Source: a virus (taxonomy: Duplodnaviria; Caudoviricetes). From it: a stretch of DNA of 64,000 nucleotides. The stretch spans positions 29,360-93,359 of IMG/VR virus record IMGVR_UViG_3300021431_000096. One strand, given 5' to 3'. Below the pieces are notes generated by a model. The model searched no databases and was not told the DNA's origin. It saw only the letters and a list, made by a program, of their open reading frames with translations. Shown piece after piece: positions 446 to 57,708 of the stretch (positions are counted from its first letter, which is position 1; every line of letters begins with the position of its first letter). The position numbers and the translations under genes are program-made.

Positions 446-479
446 GTCCCAAAATTTTTCGGGCACGACACTAAATTTG
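446..479 (+). promoter_or_regulatory. Phage-type promoter GTCCCA-N20-TAAATTTG
   Basis: GTCCCA 446-451, Bacteroidetes -7 box TAnnTTTG 472-479; one of 13 copies. Confidence 0.7.
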
Positions 480-515
480 TCGGTAGAAAACGCGGGCGGT
501 CGGCAGAGAGTCCCC

Positions 516-611
516 GCAGGTGGTACGACGTATCACATGGCGGCTGGCACGACGGAACACCTCGCAGGTGATACGACGTAGCACCCGGCAGGTGGCACGA
601 CGGACGCGCCG
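516..611 (+). repeat. 4 x 24-bp imperfect tandem repeat (GCAGGTGGYACGACG core)
   Basis: ACGACG at 525, 549, 573, 597. Confidence 0.85.
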
Positions 612-658
612 CAGACAGAAAAAAAAGAATATTCACCAACAACAAAAAAGTAACAATT

Positions 659-1237
659 ATGATTGACATTAACATTTACGTGAATCAGGGCGTCGAGGCA
701 TTCGGCACGACCGGACGGACGCTCACCGTGAACGAACTGCCCAAGGAAGTCTCGCTCGACTTCGTGGCCGAGGAGCTGCACCACAAGATGCGCCATCTGG
801 AGAAGGACGACATCACGATGGTGCTGTCGCGCTTCCTCGACGTGGCGGCACGCATGATGGCCGAGGGATTCGGCATCCAGTACACCAACACCAAGGAGGC
901 CGTGATGATGCGACTCTACACCGACGCCCGGCTCGACCTGCCGACGAAGAGCATCAACCTGCAGAAGGCGCAGGAGCTGATGCCCGACGTCGTTCACACC
1001 GAGCAGGACATGGTGGACCATGCCGTCGAACTCGTGGCGATGGTCGGCGTCAGGCTGCGCCCCTACGTCGAGGTGAAGCAGAAGTTCCATGAACTGCTGG
1101 CCGACTACAAGCCGAAGTATCAGGTGAAAGATACCGTTGAGCGGGCCTACGTGGAGAAGAAGGACGGCTCGGGCTCCGGCTCCGACGATAACGGCGGCTC
1201 TGATGACAACAACGGCGGCGACTCGCTGGAAGGATAA
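659..1237 (+). CDS. Bacteroidetes HU/IHF-related DNA-binding protein
   Basis: Size, HU-like helical N-half (LDFVAEEL...DITMVL...MAEGF) and G/D-rich tail ending LEG, as in 58190..58693. Confidence 0.55.
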   Translation: MIDINIYVNQGVEAFGTTGRTLTVNELPKEVSLDFVAEELHHKMRHLEKDDITMVLSRFLDVAARMMAEGFGIQYTNTKEAVMMRLYTDARLDLPTKSINLQKAQELMPDVVHTEQDMVDHAVELVAMVGVRLRPYVEVKQKFHELLADYKPKYQVKDTVERAYVEKKDGSGSGSDDNGGSDDNNGGDSLEG

Positions 1238-1362
1238 ACCAAAACACAGAGATACATAGACACAGAGATTAAAGAAAGAAAAGCTCTGTACCTCTGTACC
1301 TCTGTGTTGAAAAAAAGTAATCATAAAGCTCAAAGTTCAAAGTTCAAAGCTCAAAGTCCACT

Positions 1363-2880
1363 ATGGCAGTATCAGATGATTTCCGCAAGCAATGGCTCGA
1401 AATGGAGGAGCAGTACGGCAAGAACATCGAGCTGGGCGACATCCAGAAGATGGAGGTCGGCCAGGTCGACGAGACCGTCTCCATGCCCGCCGTGAAGTTC
1501 ACCGACCAGACGCTCACCGTCTTCCAGGAGTACCGTCACGTGCCGATGAACACGTTCATGAAGCCCATCACCGACAAGGTGGCCGAGGCCGAGACGCGAG
1601 TGACAAAACTGGAAAGCGACGTCAGCACCGCCGTCACCCAGGCCAATGCCGCCCGCGACAATGCCAACAACGCTGCCGGGCGCGTGGACACCAGTATTGC
1701 CAATGCCAATGCTGCCGCCGCCACCGCCAACGCCGCCGCGCAGAACGCCGACTCCTCCCGTCAGGCCATCGAGGCCAACGAATCGACGCGACAGACCAAC
1801 GAATCGACGCGCCAGTCGCAGGAATCTACACGCCAGAGTCAGGAGGCCACACGTCAGGCTCAGGAATCGACGCGGCAGTCGCAGGAATCCACCCGTCAGA
1901 GTCAGGAGTCCGCCCGTGAGACTCGTGCCACCAGCGACCACAACCGTGCCGAGACTGACCATACCACTGCCACCACGGATCACTCGACGGCTACCAGCGA
2001 CCACAGCCGCGCCGAGACCGACCACACCGCCAGCGTCAGCGCCACCAGCGAGGCGTCGAACGTCAATGCGCAGCTGGAGGGCATGACCGTGACCATCACC
2101 AACCGCAGCGGCGTGCAGACGAGCGTGAACATCGGCTTCGAGATTTACCGCACCTACACGTCCGTCGCAGCCATGCAGGCCGACGCCGCCAACGTGCCGC
2201 AGGCCAAGTTCGTGATAATTGCCACCACCGATGCCACCGACCCCGACAACGCGAAGCTCTACGCCAAGAACGCCGCAGGAGGCTTCACCTTCCTCAGCGA
2301 CCTCGACCAGGCATCGAGCGCAGCCTTCGCCGACTGGCTGGAGAACTACAAGCCCGTCATCGAGGCCGACCACACGCAGGCAGGACTCGACCATCAGCAG
2401 GCTGTCAGCGACCACTCGACTGCTGCCAGCGACCATACGCAGGCCGGCACCGACCATGCCCGCGCCGAGAGCGACCACACCACGTCGCAGACCGCCTCCG
2501 GCTATGCCAACGAGCAGGGCGACTATGCCAAGAACATGGCCGACCACCCCGCCTACCTCGCCGACGGCACCGCCGCCCATCCAGGCGATGCTGGCTATCT
2601 CTACACGTGGGACTACGCCCGGCAGCAGTATGTGAAGGGCGCACGCATTTCGCTCGACTTCGATTCGATGACGCCCGAGCAGAAGGAAGAGTTGGCTGAT
2701 GCCGTACTCGCCGCCATCGGATTCGACACCGTTCCGACGGAAAACTCCGACAAGGCCGTTACCAGCGGCGGGCTATATATCGCATTTCAGAATGTCAATA
2801 CCGCTCTCGCCGGCAAACAGGACACGCTGACGTTTGCCACCGACGCAACCTGCGAGGCCATCATCGACGAACTCGTCTAA
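1363..2880 (+). CDS. Coiled-coil fibre/tail-associated virion protein
   Basis: ESTRQSQ and DHxxAxx heptad repeats, PTENSDKAVTSGG and KQDTL fibre motifs, high GC3. Confidence 0.65.
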   Translation: MAVSDDFRKQWLEMEEQYGKNIELGDIQKMEVGQVDETVSMPAVKFTDQTLTVFQEYRHVPMNTFMKPITDKVAEAETRVTKLESDVSTAVTQANAARDNANNAAGRVDTSIANANAAAATANAAAQNADSSRQAIEANESTRQTNESTRQSQESTRQSQEATRQAQESTRQSQESTRQSQESARETRATSDHNRAETDHTTATTDHSTATSDHSRAETDHTASVSATSEASNVNAQLEGMTVTITNRSGVQTSVNIGFEIYRTYTSVAAMQADAANVPQAKFVIIATTDATDPDNAKLYAKNAAGGFTFLSDLDQASSAAFADWLENYKPVIEADHTQAGLDHQQAVSDHSTAASDHTQAGTDHARAESDHTTSQTASGYANEQGDYAKNMADHPAYLADGTAAHPGDAGYLYTWDYARQQYVKGARISLDFDSMTPEQKEELADAVLAAIGFDTVPTENSDKAVTSGGLYIAFQNVNTALAGKQDTLTFATDATCEAIIDELV

Positions 2881-2887
2881 CGTCGTT

Positions 2888-2920
2888 GTCCCATTTTCGC
2901 AGAAGCATTTTGTAACTTAG
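2888..2920 (+). promoter_or_regulatory. Phage-type promoter GTCCCA-N19-TAACTTAG (one mismatch in -7 box)
   Basis: Same spacing as the other copies, 24 nt before ATG 2944. Confidence 0.6.
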
Positions 2921-2943
2921 CATCAGCAAAAGTACAAAGGAAT

Positions 2944-3642
2944 ATGGTAACGACAATCAACATACCAGTGGTGCCGCCGGGGACGGATTTGAAGTTCCGC
3001 GTGACGGTGACAAAGGAAAACTTCGACCTGACACGCGACCCGTTCAACATCGTCATCAAGAACAGTTGGGGTCGCGTGGTGGCCCGCTTGCTGAAGAGTG
3101 ACTGCTATCAGGACTCTGAGGGCCGCTGCTATTTCAATATAGATAATGTAAAGGAGGGCGAGTACATGGCCGTGTTCGTCGGTGCCTATGCCGATGCCGA
3201 CTACGCCAAGCAGCATCGCATGTGGAACGACCGCCAGCCGCTCTACATCGGCAGCAACGACTGCGAGACCACGAAGCGGCACTGCTGCGACGGGCATCCC
3301 GTCGAGTATGAGCAGATATGGACGGTGAACGTCAGCGACGGCGAGTATCTGGCCGACAGCGACGGCAACTTTGTCTATACCTCCGACGGCCAGCGCATCT
3401 CGTTCAGCGACCGCTCGACTGCTGACGGTAAGGTGCGCCTCTCGATGACTGGCGACGAGTTTCTCAAGCTCATCGAGGGCCGCGAACCAAACAGCGAGGT
3501 GAACACCATTCCGGAGATGATGGACGTGATGCGCGGCATCACTGACGACGAGACCATCCCGCAAAAGATTCAGCAGGAAATCGACGGGAGTCAGGAGGAG
3601 AATGAGGCGAGCGACGCCGACATCGACAGCATTTTCGACTAA
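2944..3642 (+). CDS. Putative virion protein with C-terminal DIDxIF motif
   Basis: Long ORF with phage codon bias; ends ASDADIDSIFD. Confidence 0.6.
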   Translation: MVTTINIPVVPPGTDLKFRVTVTKENFDLTRDPFNIVIKNSWGRVVARLLKSDCYQDSEGRCYFNIDNVKEGEYMAVFVGAYADADYAKQHRMWNDRQPLYIGSNDCETTKRHCCDGHPVEYEQIWTVNVSDGEYLADSDGNFVYTSDGQRISFSDRSTADGKVRLSMTGDEFLKLIEGREPNSEVNTIPEMMDVMRGITDDETIPQKIQQEIDGSQEENEASDADIDSIFD

Positions 3643-3654
3643 AAAAATAACGAT

Positions 3655-3957
3655 ATGGCAACGACAGACAAATATCCAAGCTACCTGCCCGAGGACTTCA
3701 AGGGACTGGAGTCGATTCAGGAGGGCAACCAGCGGTACTACTATAAGACGGTGGACGGGCAGAATCTGCTCATCGGCGCTATCGTCGGCAAGCGGCATTT
3801 GGTGATCCGCTTTCCCGAGGGTTCGACTATCGACGTGATTCCGAAGGACTCGGTCGGCACGGACGAGATCAAGGACGGCGGCGTGCATCAGGAGGATCTT
3901 GACCCAAACATCGAGGCCGCCGATGACGACATCGACAATATTTTCAATAATCAATAA
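3655..3957 (+). CDS. Small putative virion protein with C-terminal DIDxIF motif
   Basis: Ends AADDDIDNIFNNQ. Confidence 0.6.
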   Translation: MATTDKYPSYLPEDFKGLESIQEGNQRYYYKTVDGQNLLIGAIVGKRHLVIRFPEGSTIDVIPKDSVGTDEIKDGGVHQEDLDPNIEAADDDIDNIFNNQ

Positions 3958-3963
3958 GGCGAT

Positions 3964-4263
3964 ATGAACAAGACAAAGGAATTGGAACTTTTCAAAATGT
4001 CCGACGGGTTCTGGGCAGGACACCAGACCGCAGACGGAAAACGCATGAAGGCGGGCGCTCACAAAATCACCGCCGAGGAAATCATGACGATGTTCACCGA
4101 GTTCTTTCAGGACTACTGCAAGGAAACTGGCGAGTCGAAGCTGCTGATGCAGGACGGAAGCGGCAGACTGTTCGTCACGATGCGGGTGCCAGACAAGCAG
4201 GCAGAAAAGCCGAAGAAGTCCGCACAAAAGCCAGCACACAAGAAGCGCAAGGCTAAGAAATAG
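3964..4263 (+). CDS. Hypothetical protein with Lys-rich C-terminus
   Basis: ORF in operon context. Confidence 0.55.
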   Translation: MNKTKELELFKMSDGFWAGHQTADGKRMKAGAHKITAEEIMTMFTEFFQDYCKETGESKLLMQDGSGRLFVTMRVPDKQAEKPKKSAQKPAHKKRKAKK

Positions 4264-4356
4264 CCCGCACACCAACCAACAATATCCAACACAAGATAGA
4301 ATGAGACTAAATCTCAGCATAGTTCACTGATTTATTAACTAAAATTTGTTTGCATT

Positions 4357-5328
4357 ATGGCAATTACAAATCCAACCAAGTACGTTTCCGTACAAAGACT
4401 GAGCCGCTTCGAGGCTAAGCTCGCTCAGAAGTATCAGACACAGGCCATCACCGCCATCACTGGTCTGAATGCAGAAACCGTAGAGGCCGCTCTGGCTGAG
4501 TTGCTCGGCAAGATCAACGCGCTCCCCAGCGCCATCATCCCCAAGGGCTCCAAGGCTTTCGCAAGCCTCGCTCCCTCGACCGACCTGGCTGCTGCCAACC
4601 TCGGCTTCATGTGGAACATCACGGACGCCTTCACCACCACAGCCGACTTCGCCGAGGGCGCTGGCCACAGCATCCCCGCTGGAGCCAACGTGTATGTGGC
4701 CAACGTAGGCACCGCCGCTGAGCCCGTCTACAAGTACGACATCTTCGCCGGCATGTACGACCTCTCAGGCTACGCCCTGAAGAGCGAGATGTCTATCACC
4801 GACGGTGAGGGTGCCGACGCCGACAAGACCACTATCCAGCTGAAGAGCGGTCTGTCGAAGCAGGTGCTCATCGCCCACCAGGACATCAGCGGCAAGGCCG
4901 ACAAGGTGGCTTCTGCTACCAGCGGCAACCTCGCCGGACTGGACGGCAACGGCAACCTGACCGACTCTGGCATCGCAGCTACTGACGTGGCTACTATCGA
5001 CGCCGACGCCGTGGAGGGCAACATCGCCGAGTTCGACGCCAACGGCAACCCCGTGGACAGCGGTCACGCACTCTCTGAGTACAAGACCAAGCAGACGGCT
5101 GTGGCTGATGCTGACGCCACCACCAGCGGCAACGACACGACCTTCGTGGACAGCGTGACACAGGACACCAACGGCGAGATCTCCGTCCACAAGAAGACCG
5201 TTCCCAACGTGTCTGCCTCTACCTCTGGCGCAGGCGGCACCAACGGCCTGATGCTCGCCACCGACAAGGAGAAGCTCGACCTGCTGCTGGAGTGCTCCGA
5301 CGACGACATCGACAGCATCTTCGCGTAA
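4357..5328 (+). CDS. Head/tail fibre-like protein
   Basis: HQDISGKADK, GNLAGLDGNGNLTDSG repeats and GLMLATDKEKLD, motifs common in phage fibres; ends DDIDSIFA. Confidence 0.7.
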   Translation: MAITNPTKYVSVQRLSRFEAKLAQKYQTQAITAITGLNAETVEAALAELLGKINALPSAIIPKGSKAFASLAPSTDLAAANLGFMWNITDAFTTTADFAEGAGHSIPAGANVYVANVGTAAEPVYKYDIFAGMYDLSGYALKSEMSITDGEGADADKTTIQLKSGLSKQVLIAHQDISGKADKVASATSGNLAGLDGNGNLTDSGIAATDVATIDADAVEGNIAEFDANGNPVDSGHALSEYKTKQTAVADADATTSGNDTTFVDSVTQDTNGEISVHKKTVPNVSASTSGAGGTNGLMLATDKEKLDLLLECSDDDIDSIFA

Positions 5329-11641: not shown

Positions 11642-11675
11642 GTCCCAAACGAAAAAAGCACATATTGTAAATTTG
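11642..11675 (+). promoter_or_regulatory. Phage-type promoter GTCCCA-N20-TAAATTTG
   Basis: Exact motif and spacing. Confidence 0.7.
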
Positions 11676-11744: not shown

Positions 11745-11884
11745 AAAGAAAAAAGTTCAGGACTTGCGGGCGAACCTGCTACAATTCTAACGGACATGAA
11801 CCGTCTGTACCCGCAAGGAACCTGAACTAAAAGGTCTCCTTTCTGATACGACGGTTCAATATTTTATTCCGTAAGAATTGTAGC
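11745..11884 (-). ncRNA. Candidate structured RNA with interleaved A-B-A'-B' pairing
   Basis: 11754-11770 complementary to 11810-11828; 11778-11805 complementary to 11850-11884; minus-strand TAATTTTG box at 11889-11896 and U-tract at the 3' end. Confidence 0.5.
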
Positions 11885-11885: not shown

Positions 11886-12200
11886 ATGCAAAATTATAAC
11901 AAAAATTACAATCGAGAGAATATCCATCACATCAGTGGGTACAATTTAGTGAAACTTAACGCTTATAAACTGAAATTAATGCAGGCTCTCGGCATCAGGG
12001 TGGAGGACGTTAAAAACCTTGCTCCTTACGAGGCTTATCACAACATGATGGGCATGAATATCGACCGAAAGCGCATGTATGCTTTCATCCGGCAGGAGTA
12101 CGGCATCAGCAGGACGAATATGCAGAATATAGCGAAGCGTTTTGAGCAGACGGTTGACAATGATGCCGGTGATTTCGGGGAGGAAATCGGAGACGGATAG
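11886..12200 (+). CDS. Small HTH (Mor-like) DNA-binding protein; true start may be GTG 11949 or ATG 11979
   Basis: C-terminal AFIRQEYGISRTNMQNIAKRF helix-turn-helix pattern. Confidence 0.5.
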   Translation: MQNYNKNYNRENIHHISGYNLVKLNAYKLKLMQALGIRVEDVKNLAPYEAYHNMMGMNIDRKRMYAFIRQEYGISRTNMQNIAKRFEQTVDNDAGDFGEEIGDG

Positions 12201-12455: not shown

Positions 12456-13025
12456 ATGGCATTAGAGATGAATGATTTGATGATGCTCCGTGGGATGGAC
12501 TCCAAGGAAGGTCTGTCGCCCTATGAGCAGGTGAAGCTCGACCACATGACTGCAAAGAATCACACTGGCGGTGTGGCAGTAGCAGGACTGGTGACTGGCG
12601 TGGCTGGTGTTACCATCGCCGCAACGGCATGGCTGTTCGGTGGTATGTACTCCAATGCGAAAGCGAAGGAGGCCAAGGAGACGGCTATTGCCGCCAAGGA
12701 GATTGCAACCCTGCAGAACGGCGCTACACAGCGTCAGCTCGATCAGTTGACCAACCTGTTTGCTGCTGAGCGTCAGGAGCGCATCGCTGGCGACGTGACG
12801 CTGAACCAGACCATCACGGACACCGTGAGCGGTCAGCAGGCCAGCACCCTTACTGCCCAGCAGCAGGCAGAACTCATGGCCTCGCAAGCTACGCAGCAGG
12901 TGATGACGAAGACCTATGAGGACTTCGTGACTGGTCGCGCTTCGCTGAACCCGACTCCCGTCAGCCTGTACTCGGCTCCACAGCCTTGTGCTTGTCCTGC
13001 CAGCGGTTGCGGTTGCGGCGCGTAA
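12456..13025 (+). CDS. Hypothetical: Gly/Ala hydrophobic segment, coiled coil, Cys-rich tail (PCACPASGCGCGA)
   Basis: ORF with A-rich leader and strong codon bias. Confidence 0.7.
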   Translation: MALEMNDLMMLRGMDSKEGLSPYEQVKLDHMTAKNHTGGVAVAGLVTGVAGVTIAATAWLFGGMYSNAKAKEAKETAIAAKEIATLQNGATQRQLDQLTNLFAAERQERIAGDVTLNQTITDTVSGQQASTLTAQQQAELMASQATQQVMTKTYEDFVTGRASLNPTPVSLYSAPQPCACPASGCGCGA

Positions 13026-13109
13026 GCGATTTGAGGGGCTGTGACTGTCCCGTATGCTGCGGCACTGCCGCAGCCTCTCATTTCCAAATTCAATTCACGG
13101 CAATATGAT

Positions 13110-13475: not shown

Positions 13476-13493
13476 CAACTAATTCACGGCATT

Positions 13494-13715: not shown

Positions 13716-13762
13716 AAAGAATCAGAAAGTTTTGCAAGAATTATCAAAAAATAGCAAGGATT

Positions 13763-16241: not shown

Positions 16242-16275
16242 ATCCCAAAAAGTTCACCGCCCGTCTATATCTTTG
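16242..16275 (+). promoter_or_regulatory. Phage-type promoter ATCCCA-N20-TATCTTTG
   Basis: One mismatch to GTCCCA; 23 nt before ATG 16298. Confidence 0.6.
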
Positions 16276-18101: not shown

Positions 18102-18133
18102 GTCCCAAAGAAATCGCACGTGCTATACCTTTG
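18102..18133 (+). promoter_or_regulatory. Phage-type promoter GTCCCA-N18-TACCTTTG (head operon)
   Basis: Motif upstream of ATG 18190. Confidence 0.65.
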
Positions 18134-23018: not shown

Positions 23019-23090
23019 CAAAGATACGGCTTTTGTCGTCTGTTTTGGGACAAGATAGTCCCATTATATATATATAAGGTATTACCTTTG
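23019..23090. promoter_or_regulatory. Back-to-back divergent phage-type promoters
   Basis: CAAAGATA 23019-23026 -N19- TGGGAC 23046-23051; GTCCCA 23058-23063 -N19- TACCTTTG 23083-23090. Confidence 0.75.
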
Positions 23091-41632: not shown

Positions 41633-41664
41633 CAAAGGTAGTATATATTCTTCTAACCCGCAAA
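41633..41664 (-). promoter_or_regulatory. Canonical Bacteroidetes promoter TTTG-N20-TACCTTTG for the leftward early array
   Basis: Plus strand CAAAGGTA 41633-41640 and CAAA 41661-41664. Confidence 0.75.
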
Positions 41665-41827: not shown

Positions 41828-41861
41828 GTCCCATTTCGGCATCGGCGCGGCTGTATCTTTG
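41828..41861 (+). promoter_or_regulatory. Phage-type promoter GTCCCA-N20-TATCTTTG
   Basis: Exact motif, 20 nt before ATG 41881. Confidence 0.75.
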
Positions 41862-42453: not shown

Positions 42454-42578
42454 CCACACAAGTGTATTAGCTTTGACATAAGCAAGTGTGCGACCAGCCG
42501 CGAGGCCCGCCGCACACGATTTTTCTTAATATATTATAAAAGGTGTGCCCGATGCTTGCAAGTTTCAGATATAATGCC

Positions 42579-42795
42579 TATCTTTGCAACGTCTAAATTC
42601 AAATGCGCGGCACAGAAGAAACAAACGAAGCCGCGACGAGCGGCATTTTTTGTGCCCTTAATGGAAGGAGTCGGGAGACTCATATATATAAACAGAACTG
42701 CACCGCGTCGGGTCACTGGATAACACCCCGAAGGCATCAGCGCATTTGAGCCTTGACAGCGCGTAGTGCAGTTTATTTTGTCTAAATTCAAATGC
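42579..42795 (+). ncRNA. CI/c4-like regulatory RNA leader 1
   Basis: TATCTTTG promoter; GTCTAAATTCAAATGC at 42591 and 42780; internal complement GCGCATTTGAG..TTGAC 42740-42757; closing stem 42696-42703/42766-42773. Confidence 0.65.
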
Positions 42796-45165: not shown

Positions 45166-45723
45166 CTATTTTCCTTCAAACATCCGCATAGCGTTCTGCA
45201 CGTCGAGGTCCACTGTCAGACCCTCTGTAACAGCCACCTTAATCTGTTCGCCGTAAGCCATACATAAATAATTGGAAATCCTACTGCAAAGGTGGTTAAC
45301 CTCTCTACGGATGAAAGGTCTGTGACTTCGCCCGGCTGAGCGATCCCAACTACTGATATACCGCTGGTCGAAGTGGGCATTCTTTGAACGCTCAACGGCT
45401 TCTGCAGTCACGCCGCTACCAACTCCTAATTCCGCAAACCGCATATATCGGTTAAAACTGTAAGTAAGATAGATATTATCAATCTCATCTGCAGCCTTGA
45501 TGAAACCCTTGAACGACCGCACACCGCGACCTGTGGAGTACCAGCCGCCCTGACGCTTGCGCATTGCATTTACTTTCTTATAGCCAGGGTACACCTCGAC
45601 GGGGAACACGTGCTGTGTGGCAGCGCCTATCTCCAGCATTTCGAGTGTGTCTTTATGAAACTGCGTGATGACGCGCCGTAATTCCATCGGCGGCGTGATT
45701 ACAGGGTCGATTTTCTTTGCCAT
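45166..45723 (-). CDS. Putative neck/tail component (HK97 gp10-like)
   Basis: STGRGVRS...YMRFAELGVG...HRPFIR pattern; own GTCCCA promoter. Confidence 0.55.
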   Translation of the reverse strand: MAKKIDPVITPPMELRRVITQFHKDTLEMLEIGAATQHVFPVEVYPGYKKVNAMRKRQGGWYSTGRGVRSFKGFIKAADEIDNIYLTYSFNRYMRFAELGVGSGVTAEAVERSKNAHFDQRYISSWDRSAGRSHRPFIRREVNHLCSRISNYLCMAYGEQIKVAVTEGLTVDLDVQNAMRMFEGK

Positions 45724-45750: not shown

Positions 45751-45834
45751 CAAAGATAAAACCTTTTTTCTCCAAAATGGGACATGCGAAAACAACCTAT
45801 GTCCCAAATTAGTACAAACACTTCATTACCTTTG
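45751..45834. promoter_or_regulatory. Divergent phage-type promoter pair
   Basis: CAAAGATA 45751-45758 -N19- TGGGAC 45778-45783; GTCCCA 45801-45806 -N20- TACCTTTG 45827-45834. Confidence 0.75.
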
Positions 45835-45865: not shown

Positions 45866-48800
45866 ATGGCAAGAGGAGATACGGCACAAGCCAAAATCAA
45901 CGTGACTACCAACGCACAGGCGGCCAAGAACGACATTGAGGACATCAATAATCTGCTAAAGAAACTTCAGAAGACAAAACAGATGATGATGAAGGAAGGT
46001 CTGCACCTGACTGTCGACGGCAAGGAGACCGCGACCTTCAAGAAACTGAACCGCGACATCAAGGATGCCCAGCAGTCGCTCAAGCGTATGGTAGATTCGC
46101 AGACGCTGATGAACAAGACGATGGATAACCTGAAGGATATCCGTCTGAAAGAACTGAAGCGCCGCTACCGTGAACTGACCAAGGAACTCGGCAACTTCAC
46201 AGGTCGCGAGAAGCAGGCATCGAAGCAGTGGCGCGACAACCTTGAGAAGATCAAGGCGCAGATTTCTGCCATCGAGGGTGCGGGCAAAGGTGCGTCGAAG
46301 AGTTTTATGTCTTTTGGCGGCTCTTTAAAGACCACGATGAAGAACCTCGTGGCCTATGCGGGCGTGTTTGCCATGTTCAATCGAACCAAAGAAAAACTGT
46401 CGGAAATCGTAAAGCTCAACAAAGAATTTAGCGATCAACTTGCGAATATCCGTAAGGTCAGCAATTTGCCGATGGATTCCATCAACGCACTGGCCACAAA
46501 CCTTGCAAAGATTGATACCCGCTCCAGTGTGCAACAGCTGAACGAACTGGCCTATACAGGTGCAAAACTTGGCTTCGGAACTCTTGGAACCGATGCGCTT
46601 GAGGGATTTGTAAAAAGTGCCGTGGTCGTTCAAAATGCACTCTCAGAAGATATGGGGGCAGATGCCATGACCGCCCTGTCGAAGATGGTGGAGGTGATGG
46701 GACTGATACCGAAACTCGGTGTCGAGAAAGCCATGAACTCCGTCGGCTCGGCTATCTTCAAACTTGCATCCACCTCTACCGCCACGGGTACGAACATCGT
46801 GGAGTTCTCAAAACGACTGATGGGACTTGCTAATCAGGCGGGAATTACCGCTGACGAGCTGTTGGCCATTGGCTCCGCCGCCGACTCAATGGCTTTGATG
46901 CCCGAGGTGGCAGCTACAGCCTTCAATAAGTTGATTACCTCCGTACAGAAGCAGCCCAACCTGATAGAGAATGCACTCCATATTGAGCCAGGCACTATCA
47001 GTCAGATGTATCAGGCAGGCAAGATGACCGATGCGCTGGTGCTGATATTCGACAAGATGCGTGAGAAAGGCGGCATGAATGCTCTGATGCAGTCTGGTGT
47101 GTTCAAAGACCTCGGTTCCGACGGTGCCCGACTGGTGGCTGTGATGGCCACGATGTCAAACCGTGTGGATATGCTGAAAGAGCACCTTGAGACTGCCCGC
47201 GACGCTTTTGCCGAGGGAACAGCGGTAGGTCAGGAATACGCTATCCAGATGGAGACAGCCGAAGCCTACTCTGAGCGAGCCGCTAACATGTGGACCAAGG
47301 CGTTTGTCAACCCCGAGGGTGTCAATGTCGTCAAATCGCTTACAAAGGCGTGGTATGATATGACCGTACAGCTCACGCAGTCTGAGTCGGTGATGACCTC
47401 CGCCAAATTCCTGCTCGAAGGACTTGTTAGTGTCCTCAAGGTATTTATATCCATTCTGCCAGGACTGCTGACAAGCCTTGCAGCCTTCAGTGGTATCAAG
47501 GGACTGATGATGCTCTACAATTCGCTGTTCGCTGTCGAAGGAATGACTATCCGCACCATGCTGTCGCTCAGAGGTCTCGGACTGATGATGAAGACCAACT
47601 GGGTAGGTTGGGTGGTTACGGCCATCGGTGTACTGGGACAGTTCGTATTCTCCCTTGCAGCAGCCAAGGACAAGATGGACGAGGCGCGGGGGGCTATGCC
47701 TGGATTCAAGCGCGACCTCGGCGACCTGAATGTGGCCTTCGGTGCTGCGGCATCCGAAGCAGGCAGATTCCGTGATGCTATCCTCGCAGCTGAGAAAGGC
47801 ACTAAGGAGCGTGCAGCAGCCATCCGTAACTTTAAGCAGCAGTACGGTCAGTACCTCTCACAGATGATAACCGAGGAGAGCAGTGCCTATGCCATTGCCA
47901 AAGCCTATAACGAGGTGACGAAAGCCCTGCGTGCAAAGATTGCCCTCCAGATGAAGGAAGAGGACATCAGCAATCAGGTGGCACCCCGTGAGGGATGGGC
48001 AGCACAGCGCCGCGAGGAATACAACAAATACATGGGGCAGAGCCAATATAACGGCGCATGGCTGACGGGCGTTGTCAACGATGCACTTGCCAAGGGTACA
48101 TCTATCAAAGACCTCGCCAAGCAGCTTAACGCAAAAGCCTTCCACCTGTCCGACGAGATAGTGGAGAATGCCTTGAAACAGAGTGCCAGCGGCACCTATA
48201 AAGATATAAAAGGTGTAACCACAGAGAATGGTGATATCTTCCGTCAGCTTAACGGTCAGAATTTGTGGCGTGCTCTCCGCTATGCCACCCAGTCGTATTC
48301 TGCCAATACGGCTCTAAACCGCGTGAATGAAAAATGGAAGCCCGAGCAAGACTTGATTAATGAGACCCTCGCCAAGCAAGGTGAGAAAGAAGTGATGGAT
48401 CCGCTACTCGATGCTCCTGATAAAGCGGCTGAGCGTGCTGCACGCAAGGCGGCGCAAGATCACAAGCAGGCGATTCGCAAGGACTTGCAGGACGCGAAGC
48501 AGGAGTCGGATGCCATCATCGCGAAGATTGAGGAGTGGTACCGGCTGCAGGAGACGGTGGTGACGGGATTCGCCGCCGACGGGAAGTGGACGCAGCAGCA
48601 GGCGGAGATGGTGAACCGCGAACTGGAGGCCGCGAAGAACGAGGCGCTGGCCAACGCCCGACTGGCTATCAGTGGGCGCGACACCCAGACGTGGGAGCAG
48701 ACCAAGGAGAGCCTGCGCGTGATGATGTTCGACACGGGCGAGTGGTCGCAAGAGCTCTTCCAGCAGATATTGGACGTTTCGATGTCCGCCATCAGCAACA

Positions 48801-50830
48801 AACTCGCAAAGATCGACGCAGCTGGCGGCAAGTACGGCATCACCACCTCGTCGCTGAAGGACGGACTCGACAAGAACGCCGCCGGCAACCGCCGCAAGGT
48901 GCAGGAAATCCGCAACAAGACCGCCAAGGAGGTGGAGAAGATGCTGAAGCAGTACGACTTCTTGCAGCAGGCGATGGACGCTTTCGACAACCGCCTCGCC
49001 CAGTTGGGGCTGCTTACTGACAGTGCCGTGGCCGCTGCCAACCGCATCCGTCAGGCTACGGAGAACCCGGACGAGGCACTGAAGGCTGGCTATCAGGCAC
49101 CGCCAACCGCAGAGCAGGTACAGCAGCAGCGCCGACAGGGACTGGAGACCGCCGCCACCAGGTTTATCGCCGGAGGTGGCAAGTCGATGGCCGTGAACTA
49201 CAACGACAGCAAGGAACTCAACGACTGGCTGCGCGAACTGACCAATGCCACCGTCAGCATGGGTGCCAACGGCATGGAGTTTAAGTTTGAATCGTGGGCA
49301 GATGCCTTCAAAGAGGATTTCGACAAGTGGTTGCACAATACTGAGAAATACAAGTCGGAGATTCAGGCATTCTATCTCTCGCTCGTTCAGGCCAGCGACG
49401 ACTACACCGAGGCCACGAAGAAAGCCTATGAACGCGAAAAGAAACTGCAAGACCAGCGATTCCAGTTGGCTGGCTACCGTGATCAGGAAGAGCAGACCGA
49501 CAAGTCGTTGGAGCGTCAAGGTATCTTAAAGGATGCGGGTATCGGGCAGACTATTCCTGAACAACTCGGACTTGATAAGATTGCCGACGATCCTGAAATC
49601 CTGCGCATACAAAACCGCATCCATTGGCGAAAGGTGGAATACGATGATGCCAAACGTAATCTCGAAGCACAGATGGAACTCGACCGTCTGCGCATAGAGG
49701 AAATGCAGCGCAACGGAGCCACTGAGCAGGAGATAGAAGATGCCAAGATGACGCTGAAGCAACAGCGGTCAGGACTGGAGGAACTGATGAAAGAGCGCGA
49801 GACGGCGCTTATCAACGAGACCTACAATCTGACATCTCAGGTAGCCCAGCAGATGCAGAAGCGCGTAGATTCCATCAAGAACTTCGTCAAGCCCGTCACC
49901 GACTTCACGCAGGCCGCAGGTCGCAAGATTGGCGACATGATATTCAACATGAAGAGTGAAGAAGCCACTTGGGAAGAGTTGTGGAAGAATATGGCTCTGG
50001 CCGTGGGCGAGGCCATGATTGAGATGGGTGCGCAGTATCTGCAGAATCTGATTATGCAGCAGAGTATCAACCGTGCCAGCGAGGCTGAGGAAGCCGCACA
50101 TGTCGCTACGGAGATTCCAATGGGTATTGCCGCTGGTTCGGCCAAGACCATCGGACAGCTCGGTTGGTGGGGTATTCCGCTTGTGGCTGTTATCAGTGCC
50201 TTGCTCATGGGATTGCTCCAAGCGGCTCTATCCACAAATCGTAATAACAATTCTGCCACTGCTGCGAAACCGAAAGTGAAGCTGGCGAGCGGCATGCTGA
50301 CTTACGATGAAGGAAACGTGCAGACGGTCGTGGGCGATGACGGACGGGTGTATCGGGCTCGCGAGCAGCGGTCGTTGCCGGAGGGTGTGTCGATGGTGAC
50401 GGAGCCGATTGCGACGCGGGTGAACGGTCAGCAGGCGCTCGTCGGTGAGCGCGGGCCTGAGATTGTGATCGGGCGCAAGACGACAAGGGCCATTCAGATG
50501 AACCGTCCCGATTTGTTGCGAGACCTGGCGCTGATAGACCGTGGCATCACGACGCGCAAGGTGCGGACGTTCGACGAGGGTAACATCAGTGACATGGCGA
50601 CGGCCTTTGCGGGGCAGTTGCCTGCGCCGCAGCAAGGGCAGCAGGGCAGCGAGGACAGCCCCGAGATGCGCCAGACGCTCGACTCGCTGTCGCAGACCGT
50701 CGCCGCCCTCTCGGCCACCGTCCTGCAGTTGCAGAAGAACGGCATCCCCGCGAAGATTCAGAAGTACGGCACCGGCGGGCTCATCGACGAGGTGCAGTCG
50801 GGGCTGAAGTTCGTCAGCAAGTATAAGTAA
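45866..50830 (+). CDS. Tail tape measure protein (TP901-family core)
   Basis: 1654 aa, helical; FSDQLANIRKV...IDTRSS...GAKLG; C-terminal LVGERGPEIVI. Confidence 0.9.
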   Translation: MARGDTAQAKINVTTNAQAAKNDIEDINNLLKKLQKTKQMMMKEGLHLTVDGKETATFKKLNRDIKDAQQSLKRMVDSQTLMNKTMDNLKDIRLKELKRRYRELTKELGNFTGREKQASKQWRDNLEKIKAQISAIEGAGKGASKSFMSFGGSLKTTMKNLVAYAGVFAMFNRTKEKLSEIVKLNKEFSDQLANIRKVSNLPMDSINALATNLAKIDTRSSVQQLNELAYTGAKLGFGTLGTDALEGFVKSAVVVQNALSEDMGADAMTALSKMVEVMGLIPKLGVEKAMNSVGSAIFKLASTSTATGTNIVEFSKRLMGLANQAGITADELLAIGSAADSMALMPEVAATAFNKLITSVQKQPNLIENALHIEPGTISQMYQAGKMTDALVLIFDKMREKGGMNALMQSGVFKDLGSDGARLVAVMATMSNRVDMLKEHLETARDAFAEGTAVGQEYAIQMETAEAYSERAANMWTKAFVNPEGVNVVKSLTKAWYDMTVQLTQSESVMTSAKFLLEGLVSVLKVFISILPGLLTSLAAFSGIKGLMMLYNSLFAVEGMTIRTMLSLRGLGLMMKTNWVGWVVTAIGVLGQFVFSLAAAKDKMDEARGAMPGFKRDLGDLNVAFGAAASEAGRFRDAILAAEKGTKERAAAIRNFKQQYGQYLSQMITEESSAYAIAKAYNEVTKALRAKIALQMKEEDISNQVAPREGWAAQRREEYNKYMGQSQYNGAWLTGVVNDALAKGTSIKDLAKQLNAKAFHLSDEIVENALKQSASGTYKDIKGVTTENGDIFRQLNGQNLWRALRYATQSYSANTALNRVNEKWKPEQDLINETLAKQGEKEVMDPLLDAPDKAAERAARKAAQDHKQAIRKDLQDAKQESDAIIAKIEEWYRLQETVVTGFAADGKWTQQQAEMVNRELEAAKNEALANARLAISGRDTQTWEQTKESLRVMMFDTGEWSQELFQQILDVSMSAISNKLAKIDAAGGKYGITTSSLKDGLDKNAAGNRRKVQEIRNKTAKEVEKMLKQYDFLQQAMDAFDNRLAQLGLLTDSAVAAANRIRQATENPDEALKAGYQAPPTAEQVQQQRRQGLETAATRFIAGGGKSMAVNYNDSKELNDWLRELTNATVSMGANGMEFKFESWADAFKEDFDKWLHNTEKYKSEIQAFYLSLVQASDDYTEATKKAYEREKKLQDQRFQLAGYRDQEEQTDKSLERQGILKDAGIGQTIPEQLGLDKIADDPEILRIQNRIHWRKVEYDDAKRNLEAQMELDRLRIEEMQRNGATEQEIEDAKMTLKQQRSGLEELMKERETALINETYNLTSQVAQQMQKRVDSIKNFVKPVTDFTQAAGRKIGDMIFNMKSEEATWEELWKNMALAVGEAMIEMGAQYLQNLIMQQSINRASEAEEAAHVATEIPMGIAAGSAKTIGQLGWWGIPLVAVISALLMGLLQAALSTNRNNNSATAAKPKVKLASGMLTYDEGNVQTVVGDDGRVYRAREQRSLPEGVSMVTEPIATRVNGQQALVGERGPEIVIGRKTTRAIQMNRPDLLRDLALIDRGITTRKVRTFDEGNISDMATAFAGQLPAPQQGQQGSEDSPEMRQTLDSLSQTVAALSATVLQLQKNGIPAKIQKYGTGGLIDEVQSGLKFVSKYK

Positions 50831-52757: not shown

Positions 52758-52791
52758 CAAAGGTAATACCGACCTTTCGACGAAATGGGAC
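52758..52791 (-). promoter_or_regulatory. Phage-type promoter GTCCCA-N20-TACCTTTG
   Basis: CAAAGGTA 52758-52765, TGGGAC 52786-52791. Confidence 0.75.
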
Positions 52792-52861
52792 TATCTTGAC
52801 AGATAATCGTTAAATTTATAAAATAAAAAGCCACATCCTTGCACATCCAAAATATTCTTCT

Positions 52862-52992
52862 TATCTTTGCACCGTTCAAATAATTACATAATGTATAATC
52901 AGAAATACAAGACTGCACCGTGCGGGGTATGGGACAACCACCCCAAGGTTGTTGCATTATGCGACCTGAACAGCGCGTAGTGCAGTCTTTTG
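52862..52992 (+). ncRNA. CI/c4-like regulatory RNA leader 2
   Basis: TATCTTTG promoter; GTTCA..CATAATG 52874-52893 complementary to CATTATG..TGAAC 52955-52971; stem GACTGCAC/GTGCAGTC followed by a T-tract. Confidence 0.6.
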
Positions 52993-53002: not shown

Positions 53003-54337
53003 ATGGCAAAAAGAAAACTTTTCTCAGACGATGACCTTGCCAAGATTGCGTCAGGGTATGATGACTTGTGCGAGTTCCGCAAGAATGAGCCGTCGGCTTA
53101 CGTTGTAATTCATCGGCGCGGGCTATTTGATAAGCTCTGCGGACACATGACCCGTCGCGTCCGCAGGCTGTCTGACGACGAATTGGCAGAGATTGCAAGT
53201 GGCTACGATTATAAGAAGGATTTTCTTCATGGCGACATGGCCGCATATAACACGGCAAAGTCACGCGGCATATTTGAGAAGATTTGTGCCCACATGAAAG
53301 AATACCGAACTCCTTCAGGATATTGGATTAAGGAAAGATGTCACAAAGAAGCATTGAAATATGATAGTCGCATGGGGTTTTGTAATGGCAACCCTGGTGC
53401 ATACGGCGCAGCTCAGTCCCACGGATGGCTCGACGAGGTATGCAGCCACATGAAACCGCAGGGTAACTGGACGAAGCGTAAAATCTATGTGTTCACTTTC
53501 TCCGACGGCTATGCCTATGTCGGATTGACCAATAATATCAAGAGCCGTCTCTCGCAGCACCTCTCCAAGAAGAAACGGTCGCCAGTATGTAAGCACATTC
53601 AAGAGACGGGGGCATCGTTCGAGTTCAAAATCCTTACTGATGAATGGATTGACATGGATGTGGCAGGCAGAGTGGAAGATCAATACATCAGCCAATATGC
53701 AGACGACGGTTGGAAGATGCTCAATAAGAGAGGTGGCGGCCTTGGCAGTCCAAAGCACACCTACTACACCCCAAACCGTCTGCGACGCGAGGTGTCAAAA
53801 TATGAATACTTGCATGATTTCCGCGAGAAATCTCCACAATATTACAGTTACATGCTTGCTCACGGGCTAATTGATGAATATTGCTGTGGGTTGAAGCGCG
53901 ACTTGAAACCGCAAGGATTTTGGACGCTTGAACGTGCGATTGCCGTTGTGCCTGAGTGTAAGTCGCGCCGCGAGCTTGCGTCAAAATACTATCAGGCTTA
54001 TGTCTTAATCAAAGATGCTGGTCTGCTGACAAAGTATTATCCCAACAAGGTAGTATCGAAGAAAAAGATTTGGACCTTGGAGAAGAGCCTTGAAGTAATA
54101 CCTCTTTGTAAATCTCGCAAGGAGTTGCAGAAGAAGTATAGCAAGGCTTACGATACCCTACTGAAGGCTGGAAGGCTTGATGAGTTTTACCCTTTGAAAT
54201 GCAAAAAATACACCGACGAGGAGAAGGCAGCGGCTATTGCTGAGTGCAAGTCCCGCACGGAGTTACATGACCGCTATCCTGCCGTCTATAAGTGGCTGCT
54301 CCGTGAGGGACGTATGGACGAGTTCTTCCCTAAGTAA
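53003..54337 (+). CDS. Free-standing GIY-YIG homing-type endonuclease with helical repeats
   Basis: KIYVFTFSDGYAYVGLT..R..QH...E...LN; flanking W/Y-TxE...C.SR.EL repeats; abuts the terminase stop. Confidence 0.8.
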   Translation: MAKRKLFSDDDLAKIASGYDDLCEFRKNEPSAYVVIHRRGLFDKLCGHMTRRVRRLSDDELAEIASGYDYKKDFLHGDMAAYNTAKSRGIFEKICAHMKEYRTPSGYWIKERCHKEALKYDSRMGFCNGNPGAYGAAQSHGWLDEVCSHMKPQGNWTKRKIYVFTFSDGYAYVGLTNNIKSRLSQHLSKKKRSPVCKHIQETGASFEFKILTDEWIDMDVAGRVEDQYISQYADDGWKMLNKRGGGLGSPKHTYYTPNRLRREVSKYEYLHDFREKSPQYYSYMLAHGLIDEYCCGLKRDLKPQGFWTLERAIAVVPECKSRRELASKYYQAYVLIKDAGLLTKYYPNKVVSKKKIWTLEKSLEVIPLCKSRKELQKKYSKAYDTLLKAGRLDEFYPLKCKKYTDEEKAAAIAECKSRTELHDRYPAVYKWLLREGRMDEFFPK

Positions 54338-54338
54338 C

Positions 54339-56336: not shown

Positions 56337-56380
56337 AATAATATGTTAGTCTGTTACTGTGTCTTTATCTGTTCTTCTGC

Positions 56381-56734
56381 CTAAGCCTTCCTGATGGCGA
56401 AGATGCAGGGCTTGCCCGTCACGCTGACCTGCATACGGAATCCTTTCATCTTCAGGTCGTCGATATACAGTTTCAGCGGGTCGCCCAGTCCGCACACGTA
56501 TGCCTTGAAGTAAGAGCGCAGCCGTGCGTCGTCGAACGTCTCCACATACTCGCTCGTATCGTCCATCCCCTGCGGTGCGGGAGCGTAGGTACTGATGAAA
56601 GCCGACACCTTCTCGTCGATCTTGAAGTCCGAGAGGCTCACCTTCGCCACCTCCACCTCCGGCTGCAGGTCGCTCACGTCGGGCGCATCCTCCCAGTCGT
56701 CCCAGTCCTGCTGTTTCTTTTTCTTTTTTGTCAT
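56381..56734 (-). CDS. Hypothetical protein
   Basis: ORF in the packaging operon. Confidence 0.6.
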   Translation of the reverse strand: MTKKKKKQQDWDDWEDAPDVSDLQPEVEVAKVSLSDFKIDEKVSAFISTYAPAPQGMDDTSEYVETFDDARLRSYFKAYVCGLGDPLKLYIDDLKMKGFRMQVSVTGKPCIFAIRKA

Positions 56735-56865
56735 AATATCCCTGCTTTATAGCCGCCCCTTATCAAGGGGCTCAAAATATTTTTCTTTTTTCTGCCCATA
56801 AGAAAATCCGTTTAATCCGTGAAATCCGTGTTCAAAAAAACTCTGTATCTCTGTGTCTCTGTGTT

Positions 56866-57597
56866 TCAAATATTCTCGTCGAAGATGTCGGGCTTCTCTT
56901 CATCGTCGTCCACGGACTGCCATACGCCGTTGATTTCCTCCATCTCCTGCGTCAACTCCCGCTCTGTTAATCCGTACTTTTTCCGCAGCCTTTCTTTTTC
57001 AGCATCCGGCAGGCTTTGTCTGTCGCTCTTCACGACTGACACGTCACCTGTGATGTTGATGTTCGTGTTCGGCATCTGCTCCTGCGGGTCGTCGTCGTCC
57101 TTGAAGTCGTTGTGCAGCTTGAACATCTCCTGGTTGGCCTCCTTCACCGCCTGCCACGTGCCCGTCTGTCGGCCATATTCGCTCAGCCACTCCACGTTTG
57201 CCTCTACCATCGCCAGGTGGATATGCTTCTTCGATGTGTTCAGCCGCGCTAATAATTGATTTACGAGCCAGATATCATTTGAGATGTTTGTTTCGCTTCT
57301 GAGCGATATCGCCCCCGTCTCGGGATGCCGATGCACCCCCAGCGCCTGTGCCATCTCAATGCTCGCCTGATTGCCCATGTCGGCACAGTCCATCAGCTGC
57401 TTGTAGTCCCGCGCAGCGATATTCTTCACGATGGTGCGTATCGGCGTCGCCGGATTGTTCATAAACACGCGGTAGCACTCCAGGCACATCTGCGCCCTGA
57501 ACTTCTGTTCCAGCGTCATATTCATCCGCTCGATGGCCACGCCGCCGTGCGTCCACGCCACCACCTTCTCCAGATAACTCTGTGACAGTTGACTCAT
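56866..57597 (-). CDS. Putative terminase small subunit
   Basis: First gene of the operon containing terL, ~243 aa, helical; assigned by synteny only. Confidence 0.5.
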   Translation of the reverse strand: MSQLSQSYLEKVVAWTHGGVAIERMNMTLEQKFRAQMCLECYRVFMNNPATPIRTIVKNIAARDYKQLMDCADMGNQASIEMAQALGVHRHPETGAISLRSETNISNDIWLVNQLLARLNTSKKHIHLAMVEANVEWLSEYGRQTGTWQAVKEANQEMFKLHNDFKDDDDPQEQMPNTNINITGDVSVVKSDRQSLPDAEKERLRKKYGLTERELTQEMEEINGVWQSVDDDEEKPDIFDENI

Positions 57598-57625
57598 AAT
57601 CTCGTTTCGTTTTTGATTTCTATTG

Positions 57626-57708
57626 CAAATATAGGCATCAGCCGATGGCAAAATGGGACTACTTTGGCCAACAAGTCCCATTTCGGCGAAGGACCGATAG
57701 TAATTTTG
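57626..57708. promoter_or_regulatory. Divergent phage-type promoter pair
   Basis: CAAATATA 57626-57633 -N20- TGGGAC 57654-57659; GTCCCA 57675-57680 -N20- TAATTTTG 57701-57708. Confidence 0.75.

Follow-up and report, generated by a model that had tools for sequence, protein, structure and literature searches.

A GTCCCA box at −33 and a host-type −7 box mark a probable phage-specific late promoter class in a Bacteroidota phage

Introduction

The middle promoters of phage T4 combine a MotA box at −30 with the −10 box of sigma-70, and they are served by the activator MotA and the co-activator AsiA in a process known as 'sigma appropriation'. The housekeeping promoter of Bacteroidota consists of TTTG at −33 and TAnnTTTG at −7. 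To our knowledge, the timing of gene expression in gut and rumen phages of Bacteroidota is almost unstudied, except for the crAss-like phages, which bring their own polymerases. A preliminary description of a 64-kb stretch of DNA (64,000 nucleotides, here referred to as the window) from a 93-kb Prevotella-type phage genome listed 13 promoters in which GTCCCA precedes a Bacteroidota −7 box, and proposed that a phage factor takes over recognition at −33. We found no published description of such a GTCCCA class in the literature, and none that links TAnnTTTG to a class of phage promoters. The phage has no nucleotide match among the GenBank phages, where only distant matches to proteases of Flavobacterium and Porphyromonas phages were obtained.

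Results

The GTCCCA box occupies the −33 position

A pattern search of the window located all 13 listed sites, and GTCCCA (once ATCCCA) was checked at each of them. The spacers between the hexamer and the −7 box measure 18 to 20 nt, and three pairs of sites are arranged back to back and divergently (23046/23058, 45778/45801 and 57654/57675). The window contains 11 perfect matches to GTCCCA-N17-21-TAnnTTTG, where 0.05 are expected (100 dinucleotide shuffles, shuffle maximum 1), namely at 446, 11642, 18102, 23058, 41828, 45801 and 57675 on the plus strand and at 23051, 45783, 52791 and 57659 on the minus strand. The remaining two sites, at 2888 and 16242, are one-mismatch variants. The hexamer GTCCCA alone was found 34 times in the window where 28.5 are expected, and therefore only the composite is enriched. 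The complete 93-kb phage contains 15 copies, including two beyond the window at genome positions 7360 and 15249, and all 15 are intergenic and oriented toward the start of a gene.

Sequence logos of 50 type-A (GTCCCA) and 33 type-B (GTCCGY) sites were compared with 64 host-type promoters. The extended −7 consensus TAnCTTTGC is identical across the three sets, and the spacer measures 20 nt in 62% of the type-A and 82% of the type-B sites. The upstream box, WWGTCCCAWTT, is about 10 bp long, asymmetric and without dyad, and it occupies the place of the host −33 TTTG/TTG. This Bacteroidota element is missing from the GTCCCA promoters, where the CCA of GTCCCA stands in its position.

Recognisable late genes lie behind GTCCCA promoters

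In agreement with the preliminary description, the nameable genes behind the GTCCCA promoters are of the late type, and this class precedes all recognisable late genes of the phage; it is because of the identity of these downstream genes that we label it putatively 'late'. A holin/spanin-like gene (16298-16663) follows ATCCCA-N20-TATCTTTG at 16242..16275 (+), and the genes for a prohead protease/scaffold (phrog_53; 18190-19938) and a virion protein (20001-21266) follow GTCCCA-N18-TACCTTTG at 18102..18133 (+). The tape-measure gene (45866-50830) lies behind GTCCCA-N20-TACCTTTG at 45801..45834 (+), and the genes for a 243-aa protein, a 117-aa protein and the large terminase (57597-54339, −) lie behind GTCCCA-N20-TATATTTG at 57626..57659 (−).

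Most of the downstream genes are unannotated, and some are not evidently late, such as a small HTH gene and genes of the HU family. The HTH gene (11886-12200) is preceded by GTCCCA-N20-TAAATTTG at 11642..11675 (+) and a leader of about 210 nt with a large hairpin, and GTCCCA-N20-TAATTTTG at 57675..57708 (+) precedes a small ORF and the HU-HIG DNA-binding protein gene 58121-58693. At the left end of the window, GTCCCA-N20-TAAATTTG at 446..479 (+) has the plus-strand ORFs 659-1237 and 1363-2880 next to it, and GTCCCA-N19-TAACTTAG at 2888..2920 (+), with its mismatch in the −7 box, stands ahead of a plus-strand ORF cluster (2944-5328) that is present only in the GTCCCA-type ones among the relatives. 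The divergent pair formed by GTCCCA-N19-TATCTTTG at 23019..23051 (−) and GTCCCA-N19-TACCTTTG at 23058..23090 (+) serves a 215-aa gene (22341-22988, −) and a 534-aa gene (23124-24728), respectively. A 190-aa gene (41881-42453) follows GTCCCA-N20-TATCTTTG at 41828..41861 (+), a basic 185-aa gene (45166-45723, −) follows GTCCCA-N19-TATCTTTG at 45751..45783 (−), and genes for 383-aa and 196-aa proteins (52740-50877, −) follow GTCCCA-N20-TACCTTTG at 52758..52791 (−).

The host-type promoters named in the preliminary description (41640−, 42579+, 52862+, 60253+ and 11447−) were likewise found to carry an upstream TTG or TTTG at a distance of 19-20 nt from the −7 box. TTTG-N20-TACCTTTG at 41633..41664 (−), with a second promoter 32 nt upstream, lies ahead of the long minus-strand early operon (41599-25193). 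TTG-N20-TATCTTTG occurs at 42556..42586 (+) ahead of a non-conserved zinc-finger-array/REase-like gene (43086-45089), at 52839..52869 (+) ahead of a non-conserved GIY-YIG gene (53003-54337), and at 60230..60260 (+) ahead of HNH and TnpB-like genes (60455-63679). The sole host-type promoters of the late region precede non-conserved selfish nuclease genes.

The composite is at control level in host-family genomes

The comparison with host DNA that the preliminary description had suggested was made with 61 Prevotellaceae genomes (about 175 Mb). The composite matched 43 times against 34 times for the reversed control, or about 0.25 per Mb, and the density of about 129 per Mb in the phage is about 500-fold above that of the Prevotellaceae chromosomes. 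In five MAG or isolate genomes, the matches were likewise about as frequent as those of the reversed control, and they were piled on phage contigs. These counts would be compatible with a host factor that has a very small regulon.

The box switches between related phages

The search in related phages, also suggested earlier, showed that the box is present in them and switches among GTCCCA, GTCCGY and GTCCTC at orthologous promoters. GTCCCA sites number 11, 7 and 9 in the relatives G003, G004 and G005, and zero in G001 and G002, which instead carry GTCCGY at promoters orthologous to the GTCCCA ones; the promoter orthologous to the one at 16242, for example, has GTCCCA in G003 and G005 and GTCCGT in G001. 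The more distant relatives MGM1, C315 and L053 have GTCCCn, GTCCGC and GTCCTC, respectively, and RUG7, a further relative, has no GTCC box and carries a GCCCTTGA box with an N19 spacer. GTCC is the core common to the GTCCCA, GTCCGY and GTCCTC types. Across the relatives, orthologous promoters keep their position, their spacing and the host-like −7 box while the upstream box is lineage-specific, as predicted for a reader that is encoded by the phage. Box type switched at least twice inside one phage family whose rumen or gut sources are similar. A cassette that the present type-A phage has in common with a type-B phage retains its GTCCGC promoter, and in the present phage an extra GTCCCA promoter lies upstream of it. 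In a second group of phages, which is distantly related, GTCCCA-N21 occurs at 8 sites within 45 kb. This group shares head, tail and packaging families with the present phage, namely the protease, a 186-aa family, the terminase, 651-aa and 917-aa families and the tape measure, and in addition a DUF4406 protein and a C5 methylase.

Candidates for the box-reading factor

The preliminary description saw no sigma factor in the window, and this holds for the whole 93-kb phage, where six-frame searches with PF04542, PF04545 and PF08281 (Sigma70_r2, r4 and r4_2) and with TIGR02937 and TIGR02985 (full-length ECF models) returned nothing at cut-offs of E≤1 or E≤10 while controls were detected. No Pfam match to MotA or AsiA was obtained among the about 90 ORFs scanned, which comprise part of the small ORFs, and it should be noted that analogues need not be homologues. 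A homologue of Lpa or Ogr was not detected in the phage either.

The 'Mor-like' HTH protein at 11886..12200 (+), previously put forward as the factor, is a four-helix protein of 104 aa with an HTH-like C-terminus. It has no Pfam match, and its AF2 model (pLDDT 78) suggests a plausible HTH fold; the best structural match is to the HTH subdomain of Mu transposase (Z 6.5), and Mu C was matched by Foldseek only in the noise range (E=8). RUG7 encodes this protein although it is without a GTCC box, whereas MGM1 and C315 have GTCC boxes and lack the protein. Its putative recognition helix is identical between one phage with GTCCCA and one with GTCCGT. Because neither its occurrence nor its recognition helix follows the box, we rejected it as the reader. 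The other ORF proposed earlier, the 534-aa ORF at 23124, fared no better: zero residue columns partition by box type in it, and the same was found for the 185-aa and 243-aa proteins.

A 189-aa protein (12456-13025) looked regulator-like at first since it is always found behind a host-type promoter. It was rejected, as a transmembrane helix and a Cys-rich tail were seen in it and MGM1 and C315 lack it. The 383-, 196- and 186-aa proteins show a clean split between type A and type B in near relatives, yet their consistent and inconsistent columns are balanced (60/64, 21/21 and 20/20, respectively), and searches of PDB sequences and of a protein atlas gave no result for them. The tree of the 383-aa protein mirrors the phage phylogeny, and its model (pLDDT 68) matched no PDB fold and a single viral protein significantly, which is uncharacterised. 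The HU-HIG DNA-binding paralogues are not universal, and no small basic ORF is both universal and type-tracking. An HTH_3 (Cro/CI-type) protein of 100 aa (59818..60120, −), whose C-terminus carries a CxxC hairpin, belongs to a multi-paralogue family of early regulators, with several HTH_3 paralogues per phage that could not be mapped onto box type. An ABBA/BABA-style test of 23 families gave a best p-value of 0.0125 before correction, from which no candidate emerged, and a presence/absence filter across the relatives left only unannotated or structural-looking proteins. Comparison of the small proteins with those of the second GTCCCA phage group (498 hhalign comparisons) gave none at a probability of 40% or more. 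Covariation, presence/absence, fold and profile-profile searches thus yielded no box-reading factor.

Discussion

We consider it probable that the GTCCCA sites constitute a phage-specific promoter class for late genes (virion, packaging and lysis) that joins the host −7 box to a phage box at −33 and is read via a phage factor. We infer that this factor is phage-encoded and replaces recognition at −33 while the host sigma reads the −7 box. In this view, the primary sigma of the host RNA polymerase would still recognise the −7 box, and the box at −33 would be bound by a phage protein acting as a monomer. This protein could serve as an activator, with sigma region 4 either taken over or displaced as by MotA/AsiA of T4, or it could substitute for region 4, and it would switch transcription from the host-type early promoters to the late promoters. 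Both the late timing and the AsiA/MotA-style mechanism are presumed. The factor is neither a recognisable sigma nor the HTH protein at 11886. Of the earlier proposal, a phage-specific class with a host −7 box has stood, with indirect support, and the named candidates for the factor have not.

A highly diverged phage sigma might replace the host sigma by recognising GTCCCA as its −35 element together with the TAnnTTTG-like box. In its asymmetry, its length of about 6-10 bp and its strict spacing, the GTCCCA box resembles a target of sigma region 4, and such a protein could hide among phage proteins that are mostly unannotated; we nevertheless regard it as improbable, given the empty six-frame searches with five sigma models and the −7 extended consensus, which equals that of the host-type promoters, so that host sigma region 2 is the simpler explanation. 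GTCCCA could also be the operator of a phage repressor, with the promoters running on a strong −7 box alone and silenced, early in infection or during a carrier state, by a protein that covers the −33 position. C1 of phage P1 is a precedent, with many asymmetric single operators scattered over the genome, and several Cro/CI-type HTH_3 proteins are encoded behind host-type promoters of the present phage. This explanation has little likelihood, however, because the phase of the box to the −7 box is fixed at 20 ± 1 nt and the box replaces TTG rather than joining it, which is typical of a recognition element of the transcription machinery and unnecessary for steric repression, and the HTH_3 paralogues are unmatched to box type.

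The reader might also be a host protein, either a minor sigma or an activator that controls very few genes, in which case the box differences would reflect differences between host species. The composite is not wholly absent from host genomes, with 0-6 copies each, but the host counts equal the reversed control, the box switched at least twice among members of a single phage family with similar rumen or gut origins, and the type-B cassette gained a type-A promoter in this type-A phage; a host reader is accordingly quite unlikely. Least credible, and pure speculation, is that the box works as a −33 element only once a phage enzyme has modified the DNA (for example a GTCC/GGAC methyltransferase), so that late transcription would be tied in time to DNA that has been modified or replicated. 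Every GTCC-type phage examined has a conserved N6/N4 methyltransferase, which the search did not find in RUG7; more genes of the DNA-modification type lie in the early region, and the shared GTCC core would suit such an enzyme, but the methyltransferase is without type-consistent residues (8 against 16) and the C5 methylase is lacking in G001.

Returning to a phage-encoded factor, we tentatively suggest that phages of Prevotella and other Bacteroidota may possess an undescribed family of such factors that has no sequence relationship to MotA/AsiA, Mor/C, Lpa or sigma and that retargets the unusual primary sigma holoenzyme of Bacteroidota from the −33 TTTG to a phage box, with a specificity that evolution easily resets (GTCCCA, GTCCGY, GTCCTC and GCCCTTGA) and that gives related phages late regulons orthogonal to one another. 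The class provides a countable late-promoter signal with a natural specificity series at orthologous promoters, and an experimental handle on a factor that would redirect the Bacteroidota sigma-A holoenzyme. It can aid annotation by flagging late operons in phage genomes that are otherwise unannotatable, and orthogonal pairs of box and factor, if true, would be useful gene-control parts for Bacteroides and Prevotella.

The −7 box, the extended consensus and the spacer length are identical to those of the Bacteroidota housekeeping promoter, from which the class differs by GTCCCA in place of the −33 TTTG and by the chance-level occurrence of the composite in 61 host-family genomes. TGCCCTTG and TGTCCCA boxes in other Bacteroidota phage DNA resemble it in box and architecture. 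As in Mu Mor/C promoters, the downstream box is usable and an upstream consensus is lacking. The Mu promoters depend on a small phage HTH activator, and the present phage encodes a small four-helix HTH-like protein (11886-12200); however, Mor and C bind dyad sites centred near −43.5 as dimers whereas the box here is asymmetric and at −33, and the 11886 protein neither co-varies nor co-occurs with it. The late promoters of P1 (Lpa with host SspA) and P2/P4 (Ogr/Delta) are also scattered sets with a phage-specific upstream element replacing −35, but for this element P1 has an inverted repeat near −22 and P2 a dyad near −55, and their activators have no detected homologue here. T4 middle promoters share the retained host downstream element, the asymmetric phage box at the −35/−33 position with tight spacing and, as proposed here, reading by a monomer. 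In contrast to T4, the sigma is the Bacteroidota primary one with its −33/−7 architecture, no MotA/AsiA-like protein appeared among the about 90 ORFs scanned with Pfam, the genes are apparently late rather than middle, and box specificity switches between close relatives. By analogy, therefore, this kind of promoter would already be known from the T4 MotA-box promoters and the Mu, P1 and P2 late promoters, and its GTCCCA variant appears to be new.

The GTCC promoters of G000

In the window, the hexamer GTCCCA by itself is not enriched (34 occurrences against 28.5 expected); the composite GTCCCA-N17-21-TAnnTTTG is found 11 times against an expectation of 0.05. Two further sites have one mismatch each, namely site 2888, which carries TAACTTAG, and site 16242, which carries ATCCCA, and together with the 11 perfect composites they bear out the list of 13 sites in the preliminary description. 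Across the whole genome of G000, the phage under study (an IMG/VR viral contig of 93,359 bp with 54% G+C, 95% complete according to CheckV, of which the window makes up the final 64 kb), there are 15 sites, and one of the two outside the window heads a conserved gene for a 651-aa protein. When shadow ORFs are set aside, all 15 sites are intergenic and each is directed at the start of a gene, the distance from box to start codon being 17-56 nt at most sites, with longer leaders at site 446 (179 nt) and site 11642 (210 nt). The three back-to-back divergent pairs of GTCCCA promoters described earlier are real, and the promoters with which they had been contrasted do carry the host-type TTG or TTTG, N19-20 from the -7 box. 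Downstream of the GTCCCA promoter at 11642 and ahead of the small HTH gene at 11886 there is a large conserved hairpin (~11760-11870), represented at the equivalent position in relatives by an A-run and a GTCCCCGCC...GGCGGGGAC stem; it may act as a terminator or as a control element of the leader.

Relatives of G000 were collected with the conserved 582-aa head protease/scaffold protein as the query. Some are contigs of uncultured phages, 57-130 kb long; others were binned with Prevotellaceae MAGs, and one, of 90 kb, belongs to the isolate Prevotella sp. MGM1 and hints at a host-phage pair that could be cultured. A Prevotella-type Bacteroidales bacterium is thus the most probable host of G000. 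In five Prevotellaceae genomes with related phage contigs the composite was no commoner than its reversed control, and the matches were concentrated on the phage contigs. The same holds for 61 genomes of this family (~175 Mb), in which 43 composites were counted versus 34 for the reversed control. Since the host counts approximate the control, the promoter class is phage-specific, as had been proposed.

Promoter positions are conserved while the box changes

The relatives G003, G004 and G005 have 11, 7 and 9 perfect GTCCCA sites, respectively, with diverged spacer sequences, and G001 and G002, which are as close to G000, have none. In an unbiased census of the hexamers located 18-20 nt upstream of -7 boxes, the top word was GTCCCA in the G003-G005 group and GTCCGT in the G001/G002 group; we refer to GTCCCA phages as type A and to GTCCGY phages as type B. 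Orthologue mapping revealed that orthologous genes retain the position of their promoter and that the box type goes with the phage. Genes with such position-conserved, box-switched promoters encode the protease, proteins of 534, 215, 651, 383 and 185 aa, the holin-like protein, the giant fibre-like protein and others. The motif is thus present in related phages, as GTCCCA in G003-G005 and as other GTCC boxes at orthologous promoters elsewhere.

Among more distant relatives (~40% protease identity) the box is GTCCCn (MGM1), GTCCGC (C315, L049, L051) or GTCCTC (L053), and RUG7 has GCCCTTGA-N19-TAnnTTTG, which agrees with TGCCCTTG, a form reported for other Bacteroidota phages. Core-protein trees indicate at least two changes of box type. 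A related phage contig of 92 kb (L044 / G007:C7) lacks a GTCC box and carries GCCCTTGA-N19-TAnnTTTG four times, at 27098(-), 31312, 63133 and 78105(-), one of them upstream of the capsid gene. A 21-nt spacer is found at the GTCCCA sites, up to eight per genome, of a second and distantly related group of 24-45-kb phages. Its 45-kb member G013 (L102-L104) has eight GTCCCA-N21-TAnnTTTG sites on a single strand, with a spacer one base longer than that of G000, and they head protease, terminase, portal-like and tape-measure genes.

Genes behind each promoter class

Annotation with Pfam, PHROGs and NCBIfam is very poor and few G000 genes can be named. The names cover structural and lysis functions (prohead protease, virion protein, tape measure, a weak large-terminase match and a holin/spanin-like protein), methylases, radical-SAM and PAPS-reductase-type enzymes, several nucleases, a TnpB-like protein, and HTH_3 and HU-family proteins. 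The left arm (genome 599-15114, L059) encodes N6/N4 and C5 methylases, two radical-SAM proteins, a PAPS-reductase-like protein, DUF4494 and DUF4406, a DNA-modification-type gene set that suggests modified phage DNA.

GTCC promoters serve the protease/virion-protein block and the tape measure, the terminase and lysis blocks, the fibre region and several unknown genes that are conserved. The long early operon and the HTH_3 genes lie behind host-type promoters, as does a conserved Cys-rich membrane cassette. Apart from this cassette, host-type promoters in the late region are found only ahead of non-conserved, selfish-looking genes. These are four nuclease-type genes located between late operons: a zinc-finger-array/REase-like gene (43086-45089) with seven DUF4379 treble-clef zinc fingers and a REase-like domain, a GIY-YIG gene (53003-54337), and an HNH/TnpB unit consisting of an HNH gene (60807-61298) and a TnpB-like gene with a 260-aa N-terminal extension (61628-63679). 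The cassette itself (12456-14098, midway through the late region) encodes a 189-aa membrane protein followed by proteins of 121 and 73 aa and a Cys-rich protein of 111 aa; the 189-aa protein has a Cys-rich C-terminus and more than 1,400 homologous metagenome clusters, every one unnamed.

The HU-HIG cassette of G000 (genome 7360-8220, outside the window; L001:1501-2361) is nearly identical to that of the type-B phage G002 (L025:18080-18560), and the shared stretch spans a GTCCGC-N20 promoter and a leader of 136 nt in which GTGCTTGCAC occurs as three direct repeats. About 200 bp upstream, G000 has an extra GTCCCA promoter that G002 lacks. Such an addition would be expected if the imported GTCCGC promoter were not read in G000, which it fits without proving it. 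The three HU-HIG paralogues (PF18291, a Bacteroidota HU family; 58121-58693(+), 27367-27852(-) and genome 7732-8220) carry acidic, glycine-rich tails that terminate in NLEG/SDEG, are missing from some relatives, and may be virion or nucleoid proteins.

Promoter anatomy and possible mechanisms

Logos were compiled from 50 type-A and 33 type-B sites of G000 and its relatives, with 64 TTG-type promoters from these phages for comparison. The box extends beyond the hexamer, to WWGTCCCAWTT in type A and aTGTCCGY in type B. At 62% of the type-A and 82% of the type-B sites it is separated from the -7 box by 20 nt (by 19 or 18 at the rest), and a spacer of 20 nt also prevails among the TTG-type promoters; the final three bases of the hexamer thus coincide in position with the host TTG. 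The two classes do not differ in the -7 box and its extension, TAnCTTTGC.

We infer both the late timing of the GTCC class and its mechanism. Probably the host primary sigma factor would still read the -7 box and a putative phage product would supply recognition at -33. A sigma factor hidden in the phage seems unlikely: a six-frame search of G000 with five models at permissive thresholds retrieved no sigma domain, in line with the earlier remark that the window has none. We rate a repressor operator overlying -33 just as low; the box is asymmetric and present in a single copy per site, which suits a reader that acts as a monomer, in a fixed register relative to the polymerase, rather than a dimeric operator protein. 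Somewhat less probable again is a host factor whose regulon is tiny, the density of composites being 129 per Mb in G000 and 0.25 per Mb in the 61 family genomes. A modification-dependent element, with an N6/N4 methylase present in all GTCC-type relatives examined, is the most improbable of these explanations.

Candidates for the putative phage product that would read the box were sought among the phage proteins. The Mor-like HTH protein at 11886, named as a candidate in the preliminary description, has a four-helix predicted fold (pLDDT 78) with structural matches only to generic HTH and sigma-4-like proteins (Z up to 6.5, within the stated noise range of the tool). Its family is represented in RUG7, a phage without GTCC boxes, and absent from MGM1 and C315, both GTCC-box phages, and its putative recognition helix is identical in one GTCCCA and one GTCCGT phage, so that this candidate is uncoupled from box type. 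ORF 23124 (534 aa), another candidate named there, fared no better, as no residue column partitions by box type in its family or in the 185- and 243-aa families. The 186-, 196- and 383-aa proteins split cleanly by box type among near relatives, but when distant clades are included there is no excess of type-consistent residues (60 versus 64 inconsistent for the 383-aa protein, the model of which has no meaningful fold match). In 23 family tests of covariation with box type the best family reached p=0.0125 before correction. The 189-aa gene always has a host-type promoter, yet its product is a membrane protein; small basic ORFs and the HU-HIG proteins are not universal among the relatives; and profile-profile comparison detected no small protein shared with the second GTCCCA phage group.

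Comparison with known systems

We found no description of such a promoter class in the literature on Bacteroidota phages. The late promoters of Mu, P1 and P2 resemble it less closely than the T4 middle promoters do, and the GTCC box lacks the dyad of the Mu sites. The T4 middle promoters, with a MotA box plus the host -10 element, have the same working architecture as the GTCC class, which is a likeness and not an assignment to any of these systems.
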